From assembly GCA_000004695.1 (NCBI GenBank), contig CM000150.2, positions 1,696,001-1,760,000 of the forward strand: DNA of 64,000 nucleotides. The letters are read 5' to 3'. Positions 6,484 through 63,870 of this stretch are shown piece by piece. Within the stretch, counting starts at the first letter, position 1; each line of letters begins with the position of its first letter. The notes under the pieces were generated by a model that had not been told where the DNA came from, ran no database searches, and was given only the letters and a program-made list of their open reading frames with translations. The position numbers and the translations under genes are program-made. Source of the DNA: Dictyostelium discoideum (taxonomy: Eukaryota).

Positions 6484-12162
<5,679 letters not shown>

Positions 12163-17033: not shown

Positions 17034-17704
17034 AATATATATATCTCTCTCTCTTCATTATCATCATTATCATCATTATCATAATCATCATCAACAACAC
17101 AACTACCATTATCATATAATCTTTACAATCATTTATATAATCAATTAATATGGTTGAAGAAGAAAGAAAAAATAAAAAAAAAAAAAAAAAAAAAAAAAAA
17201 CTACCGATACAAAGAAAAAAAGAAAAAAAAAGAAAAAAAAAGAAAAAAAAGAAAAAACAGTAAAAAAAAATTCTCACAAGTTCCAAATTTAAATTATAAG
17301 TTATTATTAGTCTTTCGATTTGAAAACTATTATTTTTGTAGTTTAAAATTTAATCTCTATAATTTTTTTTTTTTTAAAAAAAAATTGTACATATAAAAAA
17401 AAAAATACATAGAGAGTGCAAATAAAATAAATAAAAAAAAGAAATTTAAAAAAAAAAAAAAAGATAAAAGGTTTTATTATATTAGTAGGATTTAATTTAA
17501 ACAAATTTAAAAGAGTTTTATTTTTTCATTTTATATTTTTTTTTTTTCCCTAAATTAATATATACAAGTCACACATATTTAAAATTAGTTTTTTTTATTT
17601 AAGTCAACTAATTTAAAGAACTATAAATTTAAAACTTTTTTTTTCTTGTTGATATTATTATTATTTATTATCAAATAAAATATAAAATACAAATTATACG
17701 TTTA

Positions 17705-56058: not shown

Positions 56059-58689
56059 ATGGGTGATATTCAAAATACAGATAATATAGAATCAAATATA
56101 GATAATAATAATAATAATAATGTTTCATTAGAATCATCATCATCATCACAAAATAATAATACAAATACAACTACAACTACAACTACAACATCAGTTGATA
56201 ATTTACAAGTTGGAGTATTATCAATTAGTGATCAATCAACACCAACAATTGAAACACCAAATCAACAACAACAACAACAACAAGATGATAATAATAGAGG
56301 TGTATCAAATGAAACAATTAAAGCATCATTAGATGGATTAAAACATAATTCATTAAAAACAACATTTCCAAATTCAACAAATCATCAATATATTGATGTT
56401 AATACGCAATGGATAACAAATAAATTAAAAGAGAGAGAATCTGAATTTACAGAGAAAAGAGGTATGAGTATATTTTTAGGTACATGGAATGTAAATGGTA
56501 AAAAACCATCGGAATCATTAGATCCATGGTTAAAAGATCCATCAATGTCATTACAACCCGACATTTATGCAATTGGATTTCAAGAATTAGATTTAACAGC
56601 AGAGGCATTGCTATTGGGTGACACAACCAGATCATTACCATGGGAACAACACATTTTAAATACATTACAAGGTGACTATGTTAAACTATTAAGTAAACAA
56701 TTGGTTGGTATATTATTATGTGTTTACGTTAAAAAAGAACATAAACCACATATTGCAAATGTTCAATCCGATATTGCAGCCGTTGGTATAATGGGTATGA
56801 TGGGTAATAAAGGTGGTGTTGCAATTAGATTTTCATTTTATAATACAACCATCTGTATTTTAAATTCTCATTTAAATGCTCATATGGATAATGTTTTACG
56901 TCGTAATCAAGATATGAAAGATATTTCAAAAAATATTAAATTTATAAATGAATCTTCAACTGATCATTCAACTATAAATATTTTTGATCATGAGTAAGTT
57001 AAAAAAAAAAAAAAAAAAATTAATTTTATTATAAGAATCATTTCAAGTTTGTGCACACTTTTTTTTTTTTTTTTGCAATTAAAAATATTTTTATATGGGG
57101 GGTACTCATATAAAAATAATATTAATTTTTCAAATTTTTGAAAAAGTTTGTAAAAACTTGAATGATTTTCATAATATATAATTTAATAAAAAAAAAATAT
57201 ATTAATAATAATATTTTTTTTTTTTTTTTTTTTTTATTTTTTTTTTAAAAAAAAAAAAAGTCAATTATTTTGGATTGGTGATTTAAATTATAGAATACCA
57301 TTACCAGATAATGAAGTTAAAGAAAAAATTAAAAAAAAAGATTTTTATAATTTATTTTTAGTTGATCAATTAAATCAACAAATGAAAGCTGGAGCAGTAT
57401 TTGAAGGATTTCAAGAACCACCAATTAGTTTTGCACCAACTTATAAATATGATGCAGGTACAGAAGAATATGATAGTAGTGAAAAGAAGAGAACACCAGC
57501 ATGGTGTGATCGTATACTTTGGAAAACTCATAAAAAAGCTGAAAATGTTGGTATTTTATCATACAAGAGAGCAGAGTTAATTTCATCAGATCATAGACCA
57601 GTTAGTGCATCATTTGTAATTAAAATTAAAGTTGTAATTCCAGATTCAAAAAATCGTATCTATCAAGAGATTGTTAAAGAATTGGATAAAAAAGAGAATG
57701 ATAGTATGCCAGATGCAAATATCTCTACGAATATGGTAGATTTTGAAACTATTAAATTTATGCAACCAATTTCAAAACAATTAATATTTGAAAATATTGG
57801 TCAAGTTATTGCACGTTTTCAATTTATACCAAAGCTAGATGAAACAATACTTTGTAAACCTTGGTTAAAAATTTCACCATTAGCTGGTATGATGATACCA
57901 AAAGAAAAAGTTACAATTGATTTAACAATTTATGTTGATAATTTAACATCTGGTTTATTTAATATTAATAATAATTCAACAAATTCAACAAATGAATCAA
58001 TGGATGATATTTTAATTTTACATTTAGAAAATGGTAAAGATTATTTTATTTCAATTTCAGGTAAATTTCAAAAAACTTGTTTTGGTAATACATTGGATAA
58101 TTTAGTTAGATATCCACATCCAATTCGTAATAATTTACCAATACCACCTGAACAAAAGAAATTATCAATTCCAAAAGAATTGTGGAGAATAATTGATTAT
58201 ATTTATTATAATGGTTTAAAAGAGGAGGGATTATTTATAAAGAGTGGTGTAACCAAAGAAATGGAATTGATTCGTGATTGTTTAGATACCGCTGAACCAT
58301 TCTCTTCAATAAGTTTTTCAATTCATTCAATGGCTGAAACTTTAATTAGATTTTTAGAATCATTAGTTGAACCTGTTATACCATTCAATATGTATCAACA
58401 GGCGTTGGATGCTTCCTCTTCACCATTGTCTTGTAAAACTTTGGTTTCACATTTACCTTCGGTAAATTATAATGTATTCTTTTATTTAATCTCTTTTTTA
58501 ATTGAAACTTTATCAAATCAAAAAGAAAATGATTTAAAACCTGATCAATTGGCTATCATTTTTTCAACTGTTTTATTACGTCCTTCACCACAATCACAAT
58601 TATCACAATTCCCTCCTGATGCTACAACTGTTAAAAAGAAAGCTGATTTAATTTTACATTTTTTAATTTCAAAAGATTTAATTAATTAA
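56059..58689 (+). CDS. Dd5P4: OCRL-like inositol polyphosphate 5-phosphatase with a C-terminal RhoGAP domain, 2 exons (56059..56993, 57261..58689), 787 aa
   Basis: The exo/endo/phosphatase catalytic core is split by one intron (CATGA|gtaagtt, acceptor aaaaag|T) and reads as one frame: …FLGTWNVNGK…IYAIGFQELDL…LNSHLNAHMDNVLRRNQD…IFDHD/QLFWIGDLNYRIP…PTYKYD…PAWCDRILWK…SDHRPVSASF. An ASH-like beta domain follows, then RhoGAP (ELWRIIDYIYYNGLKEEGLFIKSGV…LIRFLESLVEPVIPF…LISFLIETLSNQKENDLKPDQLAIIFSTVLLRP). Confidence 0.85.
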
Positions 58690-59518: not shown

Positions 59519-59752
59519 TATTTTTTTTAAATTTTTTTATTAATTATTTAATTTCCTTTTTAATCTTTTTTTATTTTTGTAAATCAAAAAATATCGATTT
59601 GCTAATTATGAGTTTTTACAATTTTCTTCAATTTAGGTTAATCAAAATTGGTGTGTGTTTAGGTTTCAAAAAAAAAAAAAAAAAAAAAATAAAGAAATTA
59701 ACAATTTCTGATTAAATTATTTTTCACATATATTGTTAATATTATTTATATA

Positions 59753-59759
59753 TTGGTTG

Positions 59760-59842
<83 letters not shown>

Positions 59843-59852
59843 TTTTGTCGAA
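59753..59852. repeat. (AAT)n microsatellite, about 100 bp
   Basis: Perfect trinucleotide array, visible directly in the sequence. Confidence 0.95.
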
Positions 59853-59904
59853 GAAGTTCCCGCCCCCAGCCCCCGAATAATTTGATTTTATGTTACAATA
59901 TTTT

Positions 59905-60315
59905 TTTTTTTACAACACTTACCTTCACCCAAAGACCACCACATGTTGATGCGTACCCACCCATCCAACCCCATATGCCTGATACCTAAAAATACTGAAT
60001 TTAAAACAATTTATTATTCTGTTTTTGCTTAATATTATTTTATTTTTTTCTTTTTATTTATAATTATATATAATTCTTACCCTATAAAACATAAAATATT
60101 TATAACACCTTAAATAGTTACCCCAATATGCTTGACACCTAAAAATACTGAATTTAAAATAATTAATAATTATTCTGTTTTTGCTTACTATTATTTTATT
60201 TTTTTCTTTTTATTTATAATTATATATATATAATTCTTACCATATAAAATATAAAATATTTATAACTTGAATTAAAGTCCACCAATGGACTACCACACCT
60301 AATACAAATGATTCC

Positions 60316-60397
<82 letters not shown>

Positions 60398-60670
60398 CAC
60401 ATACCTTCACCTAAAGACCACCACATGTTGACGCATACCCACCCATCCAACCCCATATGCTTGACACATAAAAATACTGAATTTAAAATAATTAATTATT
60501 CTGTTTTTGCTTAATATTTTTTTATTTTTTTCTTTTTATTTATTATTTTATATAATTCTTACCCTATAAAACATAAAATATTTAAAACTTACCTTAAAAG
60601 TTCACCAATTGACCACCACACCTAATACAAATGATTCCATTATTTTTTTTTTTTTTTTTTTTTTTTTTTT
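59905..60670 (-). mobile_element. Two tandem retroposon-like insertions, poly(A)-terminated on the minus strand. Modular structure B–unit–A with an internal unit duplication; an unclassified SINE or 5'-truncated non-LTR 3' end.
   Basis: Plus-strand layout: (T)13 | A (acaacacttaccttcacccaaagaccaccacatgttgatgcgtacccacccatccaacc) | unit1 | unit2 | B (ttgaattaaagtccaccaatggactaccacacctaatacaaatgattccattaa) | (T)~75 | A' | unit3 | B' | (T)~25. Units are about 130 bp and 85-90% identical (ccatatgcttgacacctaaaaatactgaatttaaaataatta…ctgtttttgctta…aattcttaccctataaaacataaaatatttataac). Each copy therefore ends in poly(A) on the minus strand directly after module A. Confidence 0.55.
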
Positions 60671-60760
60671 GAACATACATTTATAGACCATACTTGATAT
60701 TAATTGACCCTAATACTATCACCCTGTTTATTTATTTTTCAAATTTTTGATTACAAAAAT

Positions 60761-61123
60761 TTAAATCAAAATTAACAGAGAGTACTTCAGATCTGGACAA
60801 AATACTAGGTTTGAACCAATTAAATCTTTAAGATTTCCTCTATACTCTTTTTCATCGATTAAGAGAAAACCCATAAAGAATTTAGTATAACAAACACCAA
60901 ATACAAATATATTACTATCATCATTAAATTCGAGTAAACCTGAAATATCTTCAATATTAACTTGACCACTAGTACCATATATTATTTTAACATTTTCATT
61001 CACTATTGGGTCAATTGTATTATACCCTTTTCTTTTAAATTCTGACACCATTTGATTTTTATCTTTCTCATTTTCACATGAAATTAATAATTGAATGATT
61101 TCCTTTTTCTTTTTCTTTCTCAT
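60761..61123 (-). CDS. Hypothetical ORF, 120 aa, of uncertain reality
   Basis: The ORF (…KGYNTIDPIVNENVKIIYGTSGQVNIEDISGLLEFNDDSNIFVFGVCYTKFFMGFLLIDEKEYRGNLKDLIGSNLVFCPDLKY) has a non-repetitive composition. It sits between the retroposon array and the left arm of the inverted paralogue pair. No family I can recognise. Confidence 0.3.
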   Translation of the reverse strand: MRKKKKKEIIQLLISCENEKDKNQMVSEFKRKGYNTIDPIVNENVKIIYGTSGQVNIEDISGLLEFNDDSNIFVFGVCYTKFFMGFLLIDEKEYRGNLKDLIGSNLVFCPDLKYSLLILI

Positions 61124-61315: not shown

Positions 61316-61821
61316 GTTGGAGTGTATGGTTTTGGTTTAGGTGGTGGTGGTGGTGGTGTTGGTAGTGGTTTTGATGCTGGTTTTGATAGTGGTTTTGATG
61401 GTGGTTTTGATGGTGGTTTTGATAGTGGTGGAGTTGATAGTGGTAGCGTTGGTATTGATGGTGTTGGTATTGATGGTGTTGATGGTGATATTGGTGGCGT
61501 TAATGGTGTTGGTATTAATGGTATTGATGGTATTAATGGTTTTGATGATGTTGGTATTGATGGTGTTGGTATTGATGGTGTTGATGGTGTTGATGGTGTT
61601 GATTGTGATATTGGTGGCGTTAATGGTGTTAATAGTGATGATGATGGGGACAAAAAAGAAGCTAATCCGGCTGTTGGTAAAGGAAATTCAAATGATTCGT
61701 TTAAAGTATTTTGAGATTGGTGGTAGTGGTGCGATTGAAATACTATTTTGGTTGCATCAGTTACGTCTTTTCTATCTGTTATAAACGATTCATGGTTTAG
61801 TTTTATTCTTTTTGCATTCAC
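61207..61821 (-). CDS. Hypothetical protein with an N-terminal NAKRIK…ESFEFPL motif and a Pro/Ser/Thr-rich (SKPP)n tail. This is the left, intact member of a divergent paralogue pair.
   Basis: Product: MNAKRIKLNHESFITDRKDVTDATKIVFQSHHYHQSQNTLNESFEFPLPTAGLASFLSPSSSLLTPLTPPISQSTP…SKPPSKPPSKPLSKPASKPLPTPPPPPP…(N)n. The same motif recurs 1.5 times in inverted orientation at 62915-63396. Confidence 0.4.
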
Positions 61822-61879
61822 TATATCATCTGGATTTATTAAATTGTTTTTTTGTGGTGTGATATTTTTAACTGGCGTT

Positions 61880-62095
<216 letters not shown>

Positions 62096-62384
62096 GTTGA
62101 TTTTTGTATTGTATTAGAGGTGATAGTTGTTGATTGTGCTTGCTAAAAACTTGCTGGAAACTGTGATTGATTATCTTCTAATTTTACTGTTGGAATTGTT
62201 GTGTTCGTTTGGTGGTGATTCATCATTTAAATTTAAAAATGGGAAGGGGATTTTGCCTCTTTCAAAGAATGAACCTAAATATTCAACAAGTAAACTTTAA
62301 ATGATATCAAATATTTACTTTTTTACATAATATTTAAAAAATAGCAAAAGGTTTGTCTGAGTTTACATTGTTATTTCCTTTGGA

Positions 62385-62640
62385 CAACTTTAAGTCGACT
62401 TTCCTCGCTTCCCATCGATGTGCCTCGCTCTGTCTGCTCTGTTGCCAGCCTGGACCTTGACTCGGTCATTATCAACTTACTTTCAATCCTTATGGACTCA
62501 AGGTATGTCGACACCAACGTAAGTGTGGATCAACTCTATGCGTCGTTTTCCCCAATGGTCTTAACAATGCTCTCATCCTCTCCTCTAACGCACCTCAGCA
62601 AGAGGTTATAGATAATCGCAACTAAATCCTGCATACCAGA
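62385..62640. other. GC-rich island of about 250 bp, with local GC above 50% against a genome background of about 22%, carrying an intron-like GTAAGT…polypyrimidine…CAG signature
   Basis: Sequence: ctttcctcgcttcccatcgatgtgcctcgctctgtctgctctgttgccagcctggaccttgactcggtc…caaggtatgtcgacaccaacGTAAGTgtggatcaactctatgcgtcgttttccccaatggtcttaacaatgctctcatcctctcctctaacgcacctCAGcaagagg. The composition and the pyrimidine-tract style are unlike Dictyostelium introns or genes. It matches no snRNA, 5S or tRNA consensus I can recall. Confidence 0.6.
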
Positions 62641-62721
62641 CAATAATATTCAAATCTATTTAAAACTTTTTTTATTTGATAATAATGTTTTTATGGGAGA
62701 TTTTTCTTTTATTTTGAAATT

Positions 62722-62760
<39 letters not shown>

Positions 62761-62914
62761 CTGAGATTGAAAATTTCAATGTTTTGATAATTTTTTGAAG
62801 AATAAACCATCAATCATTTATTGTTTTTTTTAATTTCAATTTTTAAAATACCTATTAGCAGTTGGATACCAATCAAAAAACAAAAGTCAAAAAATTATCA
62901 AAACACCGAAACAT

Positions 62915-63396
62915 GTAACTGATGCAACCAAAATAGTTTTTCATTCACACCACCACCACCACCACCACCACCAATCGCATAATACTTTCAACAATCACTT
63001 GAATTTCCTTTACCAACAGCCACATTAGCAGATTCATTTAAATCAAACACCACATTATTTTCTTCTCCTTCTTCTTTGTTGCCATCATCATCAACACAAT
63101 CAACACCATTAACACCACCAATATCACAATCAACACCAATTAAAAATATCACACCACAAAAAAACAATTTAATAAATCCATATGATATAGTAAATGCAAA
63201 AAGAATAAAACCAAACCATGAATCATTTATAAAAGATAGAAAAGCCAAAATAGTATTTCAATCACCCCACCAATCTCAAAATACTTTAAATGAATCATTT
63301 GAATTTCCTTTATCAACAGCCACATTAGCAGATTCATTTAAATCAAACACCTCATTATTTTCTAAATCTTTTTTTATTTTATTGTCGGCTTCGTGA
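62915..63396 (+). pseudogene. Right-arm paralogue of the NAKRIK…ESFEFPL protein. It holds 1.5 motif copies with a frameshift in the first copy and no ATG start; likely degenerate.
   Basis: The first copy, VTDATKIVFHSHHHHHHHQSHNTFNNH, shifts frame and hits a stop. The second frame reads SLEFPLPTATLADSFKSNTTLFSSPSSLLPSSSTQSTPLTPPISQSTPIKNITPQKNNLINPYDIVNAKRIKPNHESFIKDRKAKIVFQSPHQSQNTLNESFEFPLSTATLADSFKSNTSLFSKS*. The only in-frame starts are TTG, which are not used in Dictyostelium. Confidence 0.35.
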
Positions 63397-63552: not shown

Positions 63553-63594
<42 letters not shown>

Positions 63595-63596
63595 TT

Positions 63597-63730
63597 GGGG
63601 GTGTAGAGTGTGTTGAGTGATGTAATATATTTATTGAGGTTTGATGGTAATGTTACTGTGAGTTCCAGTATTTGCTAAATCTTTCAAGTTGCAGGGAGAT
63701 GATGTTTTTTTTTGTATTTTAATAAAAAAA
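63597..63730 (+). mobile_element. Candidate 3'-terminal fragment of a tRNA-gene-targeted non-LTR retroelement (TRE5-like C-module plus oligo(A)), ending about 37 bp upstream of the tRNA-Lys gene
   Basis: A G-rich block that differs from the AT background (taagttgggggtgtagagtgtgttgagtgatgtaat…gtgagttccagtatttgctaaatctttcaagttgcagggagatgatg) is bounded by (T)n at 63548-63590 and ends in aataaaaaaa at 63721-63730. Its position just upstream of a tRNA matches the known TRE5 integration preference of about 48 bp upstream of tRNA genes. Confidence 0.3.
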
Positions 63731-63766
63731 CCTGATGGAGTAAATAAATTTTGATTTCATATCAAT

Positions 63767-63839
63767 GCCCGGCTAGCTCAGTCGGTAGAGCGCCAGACTC
63801 TTAATCTGGTGGTCGGGGGTTCGAGCCCCCCGTTGGGCG
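63767..63839 (+). tRNA. tRNA-Lys (anticodon CUU), 73 nt, no intron
   Basis: gcccggctagctcagtcggtagagcgccagactCTTaatctggtggtcgggggttcgagccccccgttgggcg. The cloverleaf has a 7-bp acceptor stem (gcccggc/gttgggc), A-box tagctcagtcgg and B-box ggttcgagccc. It is near-identical to eukaryotic tRNA-Lys-CTT. Confidence 0.93.
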
Positions 63840-63870
63840 AAATTTTATTTGTAAGGATATTAAAGTCGAG

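Follow-up and report, generated by a model that had tools for sequence, protein, structure and literature searches.

A lineage-specific tandem array of a small non-coding repeat family with a G-quadruplex core on chromosome 1 of Dictyostelium discoideum

The DNA between the inositol 5-phosphatase 4 gene Dd5P4 and the minus-strand gene DDB_G0268468 of Dictyostelium discoideum AX4 harbors a 770-bp array of two head-to-tail repeat elements. It is lineage-specific and belongs to a small family of non-coding repeats that occur at several loci and share a G-quadruplex (G4) core. The array was analyzed within a stretch of 64,000 nucleotides of chromosome 1 (GCA_000004695.1, contig CM000150.2, forward-strand positions 1,696,001 to 1,760,000; hereafter the window), in which it occupies positions 59901-60670, that is, chr1:1,755,901-1,756,670; a chromosome coordinate equals the window coordinate plus 1,696,000, an offset fixed by the published positions of the 19-mer discussed below. 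On one side, Dd5P4 was recovered as a two-exon gene at 56059-58689 with 100 % identity. On the other, beyond DDB_G0268468, the gene for the Dictyostelium signal recognition particle (SRP) RNA lies 1.7 kb from the array (62352-62634, minus strand; 308 bits, Rfam), and the nearest tRNA gene, a plus-strand tRNA-Lys(CTT) (63766-63840 according to ARAGORN, 63767-63839 according to Rfam), follows at a distance of 3.1 kb. A further AX4 gene model, DDB_G0268466, falls inside the array itself.

The original prediction, made from the letters alone, had described a tandem of head-to-tail B–unit–A modules here, and this arrangement was indeed found across the entire interval (Table 1). On the plus strand the order is T11 / A' / U / U / B' / T73 / A' / U / B' / T28, which on the minus strand reads A28-[B-U-A]-A73-[B-U-U-A]-A11; the third homopolymer (T28, or A28 on the minus strand), located on the 5' side of the first element in minus-strand order, had been missed. 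Element 1 (59912-60320, 409 nt) and element 2 (60394-60642, 249 nt) stand in register as a direct repeat with a spacing of 482 bp (90 % identity in a repeat search), are 88.8-91.6 % identical to each other and show an inter-unit substitution divergence of ~7 %. Element 1 is longer than element 2 because ~156 nt are duplicated internally (period 156, 1.9 copies, 90 % matches according to Tandem Repeats Finder, TRF); the length of 130 bp originally given for the duplicated unit has to be corrected to 156 bp. Both elements start at the identical nucleotide, (T)TAATGGAATC, and their 5' and 3' boundaries are the same in both copies and coincide with homopolymers. A 20-nt motif, here termed motif X (TGTGGTGGTCWWTWGGTGRA), has four matches in the window, all of them inside the array (0.03 expected), and its two copies per element form an imperfect terminal direct repeat. 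Where the two internal copies U1a and U1b meet (…GCATATTGGGGTAACTATTTAAGG…), the TGGGG of the G4 core stands on one side and a degenerate motif X on the other. Read on the minus strand, the basic unit of ~250 nt is composed of 21 nt, motif X, an AT-rich spacer of ~150 nt, the G4 core, motif X again, 12 nt, and an A-run.

Within the 64 kb, the patterns of module A, module B, and the unit are confined to the array, and their observed count was reached in none of 100 shuffled sequences. A profile of the unit (nhmmer) retrieved no further copy from the window, and the array is the only tandem duplication with a period of at least 100 bp found there. In the 58 nt that adjoin the array on its left, an incomplete third B module was considered and discarded, as the alignment was no better than those of shuffles. 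An independent D. discoideum assembly (GCA_054883475.1, contig L001) contains the same array with zero substitutions, which is therefore not an assembly artefact. Exact-pattern scans with module A of metagenome, prokaryote-genome, and viral collections gave no match, as expected for an amoeba sequence.

Table 1. Features of the array and its immediate surroundings (window coordinates).
Feature	Position	Strand	Remarks
A11 (T11 on the plus strand)	59901-59911	-	directly 3' of module A copy 1; left array end; same length in the second D. discoideum assembly
Module A, copy 1	59912-59970	-	59 nt; 3' end of element 1; 93.2 % identical to copy 2 (55/59)
G-quadruplex core p5, copy 1, TGGGGTTGGATGGGTGGGT	59955-59973	-	chr1 1755973-1755955; G4Hunter-type score -1.64 on the plus strand
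AT-rich unit U1a	59971-60123	-	3' copy of the internal duplication; U1a plus A1 91.6 % identical to element 2
AT-rich unit U1b	60124-60273 (right end approximate)	-	5' copy of the internal 156-nt duplication
Module B, copy 1	60274-60320 (left end approximate)	-	5' end of element 1
A73 (T73 on the plus strand)	60321-60393	-	between the elements; longest homopolymer in the window
Module A, copy 2	60394-60452	-	
G-quadruplex core p5, copy 2	60437-60455	-	chr1 1756455-1756437
AT-rich unit U2	60453-60596	-	
Module B, copy 2	60597-60642	-	5' end of element 2
A28 (T28 on the plus strand)	60643-60670	-	5' of element 2; right array end
Motif X, TGTGGTGGTCWWTWGGTGRA, four copies	59924-43, 60278-97, 60406-25, 60601-20	-	20 nt; one per B module, one per A module
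DDB_G0268466 (AX4), 56 aa, two exons	60054-60317	-	exon 1 60241-60317, intron 60148-60240, exon 2 60054-60147
Segment without counterpart in species X	59847-60724	.	array plus 54 bp left and 54 bp right

The core of module A proved to be a sequence with a published biophysical record. Matching of 13-15-mers from the modules to paper text led to the work of Saad et al. (2019, NAR 47:4363, PMC6511855), whose G-quadruplex oligonucleotide p5, TGGGGTTGGATGGGTGGGT, is identical to this core and whose published chromosome 1 positions correspond exactly to both array copies. In vitro, p5 adopts a parallel G-quadruplex with a melting temperature of 55 °C in 100 mM KCl, as established by circular dichroism, UV melting, and NMR data (PMC6511855). 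According to the same study (Table 2, note g), the two chromosome 1 copies flank the gene DDB_G0268466, while three further copies reside on chromosome 2 (chr2:4,788,017-4,788,460) and five on chromosome 5 (chr5:849,448-850,835), 'interspersed by ~400 bp'. The p5 family hence comprises ten cores at three loci (two, three, and five on chromosomes 1, 2, and 5, respectively), and every known locus is an array (PMC6511855). The objection that the modules might be single-copy in the genome, which would have left nothing beyond a local duplication, accordingly fails, given that the 19-nt core of module A recurs in the chromosome 2 and 5 arrays. The footnote coordinates would place the chromosome 2 copies ~212 bp apart, which is less than the 249-nt unit, close to the 195 nt between the two motif X copies of one unit, and would mean that some arrays lack an A-run linker; as the same footnote speaks of ~400 bp, this spacing is not used as evidence. 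Saad et al. dealt with the 19-mer alone, as a G-quadruplex oligonucleotide; their paper gives no account of the 250-nt unit with its homopolymer junctions, of motif X, of the duplication inside element 1, or of the absence in sister species.

In a G4Hunter-type scan with a 25-nt window, the p5 cores reach absolute scores of 1.56-1.64. Three of the five sites of the entire 64 kb that score at least 1.5 are located at the array locus, namely the two p5 cores and a C-run at 59849-59885, the latter being the strongest at the locus (-1.84), and all three are G-rich on the minus strand, which is the sense strand of both neighboring genes. The C-run (GTTCCCGCCCCCAGCCCCCG), separated by 25 nt from the left array end and remarkable in a genome of 22 % GC, is not present in the related species X introduced below. 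This accumulation would be in line with a cluster of functional modules, that is, either cis-regulatory elements (a G-quadruplex combined with oligo(dT) as promoter or terminator for the flanking minus-strand genes, DDB_G0268468 and a downstream gene of 107 aa) or small RNA genes, and so would the stability of p5 in vitro, the enrichment of G4 motifs in Dictyostelium promoters (PMC6511855), and a conservation of modules A and B (93 % for A) that exceeds what units of no importance should show. Nevertheless, such a function appears improbable when confronted with two sister species that lack the array and retain the flanking genes, and with RNA-seq coverage (dictyBase) that is too low to assign p5 to an untranslated region (UTR), a promoter, or a transcript (PMC6511855, note g). 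Searches aimed at small RNAs likewise point away from it: the interval 59600-60900 gave no Rfam match at E <=10, including tRNA, SRP, and 5S families, neither strand of the array folds better than shuffled sequences (z = +0.73 and -1.21), and the array contains no Dictyostelium upstream sequence element (DUSE, [AT]CCCA[CT]AA). The SRP RNA gene does possess a DUSE (TCCCATAA, 62691-62698) at the expected position of -57 to -64. Candidate C/D boxes and small open reading frames (ORFs) are not conserved between the copies; a C/D-box small nucleolar RNA on the plus strand, for example, was rejected on account of UGAUGC and CUGA boxes that are mutated in copy 2.

That the array encodes a real small protein, with the repeats as gene duplicates, is suggested by the AX4 annotation of DDB_G0268466, a two-exon gene of 56 amino acids (aa) that could be rebuilt from the sequence with 100 % identity and lies wholly inside element 1. 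This explanation is scarcely credible, as the predicted protein is the only one of its kind among 5.8 billion sequences, has no Pfam match, and was not called in the annotation of GCA_054883475.1. Its counterpart in element 2 runs into an in-frame TGA after codon 12, and the two copies of the internal duplication meet within exon 2. Two other coding candidates were tried and rejected. A 29-aa ORF on the plus strand is open in both copies but exhibits six non-synonymous changes versus one synonymous change, and a multi-exon gene with an A-run in its intron has the GTATGT...TAG signals but meets a stop in copy 2. DDB_G0268466, which was not questioned by Saad et al. (PMC6511855) and is doubted here, is thus probably a spurious gene prediction, and the view of the original prediction that the structure fits no coding gene is upheld.

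The homopolymers, which provided the starting point for regarding the array as retroposed, have to be judged against their surroundings. A/T runs of 10 nt or more number 243 in the window, of which 62 reach 20 nt and 17 reach 30 nt; each kb of its low-GC (non-coding) parts holds 9.6 runs of 10 nt or longer and 2.55 of 20 nt or longer. Since any intergenic piece of 330-480 bp is expected to hold one or more of them, a homopolymer per unit is without diagnostic weight. The central tract, originally put at about 75 nt, differs in length between assemblies: it measures 73 T in AX4 and 41 T in GCA_054883475.1 (L001 14398-14438), the only difference between the two assemblies across 1.1 kb, whereas T11, T28, and a nearby (ATA)27 microsatellite have identical lengths in both. 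High slippage rates are documented for D. discoideum (PMC7466956), and the difference may stem from genuine slippage or else from a limit of sequencing or assembly where homopolymers are long. A tandem duplication whose units begin with such tracts also occurs in D. firmibasis (L002 16977-17368; 201 bp x 2.0, 95 % identity; unit starts T12 and T24). It is unrelated to the array, ends 33 nt before a tRNA-Arg(ACG) gene (17401-17474), and holds a B-box-like sequence (GTTCGAATC); interpretation as a tRNA-derived short interspersed nuclear element (SINE) was abandoned, as neither Infernal nor ARAGORN recognized a likeness to tRNA.

In the original prediction, poly(A) immediately after module A was taken as the signature of target-primed reverse transcription (TPRT), and the structure was considered SINE-like or the 3' end of a 5'-truncated long interspersed nuclear element (LINE). 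In this scenario, a non-autonomous RNA of ~250 nt ending in module A would have been inserted by TPRT into an A-rich site, followed by tail-mediated duplication in situ or by insertion of a second copy into the earlier tail. Several observations speak for such a retroposed founder, which we consider doubtful on balance: an A-run follows module A in both units (A73 and A11), resembling the A-rich 3' tail of SINEs, the family occupies three unlinked loci (PMC6511855), presence and absence are cleanly separated between D. discoideum and species X, and sources of reverse transcriptase are abundant in D. discoideum (PMC4683709). The TPRT reading itself is nonetheless unsupported, because the A/T runs equal the genome background, A28 stands on the 5' side, where it is not the product of one TPRT event, and no target-site duplication other than A's is found (the longest word shared by the array flanks has 5 nt, compared to a shuffle mean of 5.9, so that nothing beyond the A-runs is repeated). 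Nor is there a long A-run at the corresponding site of species X.

Among the family-defining features of retroposons that were examined, the A-run alone was found. A tRNA-like head was not detected in the array by ARAGORN, even at relaxed thresholds; local alignment of the array with the SRP RNA and the tRNA-Lys of the window was no better than with shuffles, with no detectable A or B boxes, and derivation of a SINE from 7SL RNA, suggested by the SRP gene nearby, was discarded as no similarity was seen. The absence of a 5S-like head and of a DUSE, mentioned above, adds to these points. Neither AATAAA nor ATTAAA occurs in the last 47 nt before the tails, and a processed pseudogene is further disfavored by the lack of a protein homologue that could represent the parent gene. 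As both elements share their start base, there is no 5' truncation, and the variable truncation points typical of LINE copies are not seen. Support for the SINE or LINE reading as a whole is partial, and comes from the arrays at further loci and from the absence in two sister species.

A genuine retroposon remnant does exist in the window and served as a positive control. It is the 5'-truncated 3' end (~130 nt, 63555-63683, minus strand) of a TRE-like retrotransposon without long terminal repeats (non-LTR retrotransposon) followed by A37, located ~80 bp upstream of tRNA-Lys(CTT). Homologous sequence in D. firmibasis (L002 17782-18100) forms the 3' end of a full-length ORF2 element (L002 17886-21239, minus strand, 1117-aa ORF). 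A tblastn search with the 1117-aa ORF2 protein matched only 63650-63703 of the window. The array shows no similarity to this remnant, the one TRE-like 3' end compared (BLAST of the array gave no match in the window outside the array), nor to the D. firmibasis ORF2 element. According to reviews, the non-LTR retrotransposons described from D. discoideum, the non-autonomous TRE5-A.2 among them, insert beside tRNA genes (PMC5633606, PMC5006619), while the array is not located ~50 bp upstream or ~100 bp downstream of any tRNA gene, the nearest being 3.1 kb away. The original statement that it is not a canonical tRNA-associated TRE insertion thus holds. Singleton copies, which a retroposon should have left, have not been reported, all known loci being arrays.

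LINE-1 3' UTRs possess a G-rich, G4-forming module just before the tail, of which module A is reminiscent, a resemblance that also speaks for a retroposed founder. In a more far-reaching version, the unit would be the first D. discoideum non-autonomous poly(A) retroposon to integrate away from tRNA genes, derived from a headless SINE-like RNA. Its G4 3' module would recruit a TRE reverse transcriptase, and its A-tails would then serve as the starting points from which unequal exchange builds arrays; we regard this version as rather unlikely.

The evolutionary setting of the array was addressed by comparison with two sister species. DDB_G0268468 is an orphan without a Pfam domain. A search of 1.84 billion representatives brought up a single relative, a protein of 100 aa from assembly GCA_054859235.1 with 70 % identity, through which the orthologous locus (contig L004) of this species, closer than D. 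firmibasis and here called species X, was reached. The gene itself (window 60700-61123, minus strand) is modeled in AX4 with 120 aa and a stop at 60761, and in the annotation of GCA_054883475.1 with 113 aa, an additional 3' intron, and a stop at 60700, so that the T28 tract lies 91 nt past the stop in the AX4 model and 30 nt past it in the newer one. Species X and D. discoideum share ~83 % nucleotide identity overall, with substitutions of ~4 % in coding and ~12 % in non-coding sequence. Homology extends from Dd5P4 through a (TAA)n microsatellite to window position 59846 and resumes at 60725 (or 60758) with the DDB_G0268468 family. The microsatellite, (ATA)27 at 59760-59842 close to the left array end, marks where clear orthology stops ahead of the array; its position is conserved in species X (L004 ~7100-7345), where it is ~3 times longer. 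Neither alignment nor the unit profile revealed an array unit in L004, and if the array is left aside, the residue between the conserved blocks amounts to 133 bp in D. discoideum and ~138 bp in species X. As judged from these alignments, the array is a clean presence/absence difference between the two species. In D. firmibasis (L002), whose Dd5P4 is 95 % identical, no trace of the unit was found within 22 kb, and both species lacking the array keep the flanking genes.

Next to the site, moreover, the segment that surrounds the SRP RNA gene is inverted and rearranged. The orientation of this gene relative to Dd5P4 is inverted compared with both species X (L004 8753-9038) and D. firmibasis (L002 13602-13881), and in D. 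discoideum it is flanked by inverted paralogous pieces of the DDB_G0268468 region (61594-61926, minus strand, versus 62909-63329, plus strand; 68-82 % identical). In GCA_054859235.1, the DDB_G0268468 family likewise comprises two inverted copies around the SRP gene, and the D. discoideum gene beside the array matches the far, inverted copy of species X at 82 % identity but the near one at only 65-73 %. This suggests that the SRP segment was inverted by recombination between inverted repeats. In the explanation favored below, the array arose, or arrived, in the D. discoideum lineage beside this evolutionary rearrangement junction. Since the ~7 % divergence between its units is below the ~12 % neutral divergence, arrival and duplication after the species split are feasible.

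Taken together, the explanation we favor, at middling confidence, is that the array is a non-coding, satellite-like intergenic tandem repeat that was amplified, and probably also moved, at the DNA level. Its head-to-tail units in register, together with internal sub-repeats, are those of a complex tandem repeat, and it shows the accompanying variation in length and copy number, with T73 versus T41 in the two D. discoideum assemblies, arrays of two, three, and five units at the three loci, and no array in species X and D. firmibasis. We infer an exchange mechanism with two steps. Unequal exchange or slippage between the homopolymers bracketing one unit would have generated the 482-bp duplication A(n)-E-A(n)-E-A(n), where E stands for the unit, and exchange between two tracts flanking a single unit would leave shared boundaries at homopolymers and a third A-run, as observed. 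A second exchange between G-rich microhomologies (motif X / TGGGG) may then have produced the 156-bp internal duplication; alternatively, the 156-nt junction could stem from deletion of an A-tract-B piece from a three-unit array. Exchange at the DNA level is favored because motif X occurs four times and the internal junction lies in a degenerate motif X. Further points in its favor are the D. firmibasis duplication with T-runs at its junctions as a parallel case, the restriction of the family to arrays, the absence from both sister species with residues of similar length in D. discoideum and species X, the rearranged surroundings, and the negative outcome of the retroposon tests. The homopolymers would then be ordinary unstable genomic tracts and not reverse-transcribed tails, and dispersal would presumably have involved the transfer of array DNA, not RNA.

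Several points weigh against this explanation. A pure DNA-level model alone leaves the spread to three chromosomes unexplained, and a retroposed founder would likewise give rise to units that all have their A-run at one and the same end. The chromosome 2 and 5 arrays are known here from the published p5 positions alone. Furthermore, the alignment of the empty site is AT-rich and ambiguous to within ~40 bp, and the presence/absence difference with species X may reflect either an insertion in D. discoideum or a deletion in species X.

With minisatellites and satellite-like repeats, the array shares head-to-tail units in one phase, sub-repeats, an unstable tract, the lack of a coding or RNA signal, and a unit length that varies between loci (possibly 212 bp, then 342 and 482 bp); unlike typical representatives, the family has two to five copies per array, is distributed over three chromosomes, and combines a long homopolymer and a G4 core in each unit. 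SINEs and other poly(A) retroposons, including pairs of Alu elements joined via A-rich tails, resemble it in the non-coding unit of ~250 nt, the A-run joints, and the occurrence at several loci. In contrast to these, it is devoid of a small-RNA head, a promoter for RNA polymerase III, target-site duplications, the tail of a partner LINE, and known singletons, and an A-run is found at its 5' flank as well. TRE5 and TRE3 elements have a poly(A)-type 3' end in common with the array, the modular A/B/C terms used for TRE5-A being a coincidence of naming. They differ from it in that the array shows no similarity in ORF or 3' end and is not within ~50-100 bp of a tRNA gene.

For the genome of D. discoideum, the result flags the AX4 gene DDB_G0268466 as probably spurious. 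It further identifies p5, one of 14 biophysically characterized Dictyostelium G-quadruplexes, as part of a lineage-specific repeat and not as a promoter element of a conserved gene. In intergenic DNA with about ten homopolymers per kb, poly(A) or poly(T) beside a repeat is not readable as a signature of retroposition. Should the retroposon reading nonetheless be true, the family would break the rule that all poly(A) retroelements of D. discoideum target tRNA genes, and it would bear on the tolerance of a gene-dense haploid genome towards mobile DNA.

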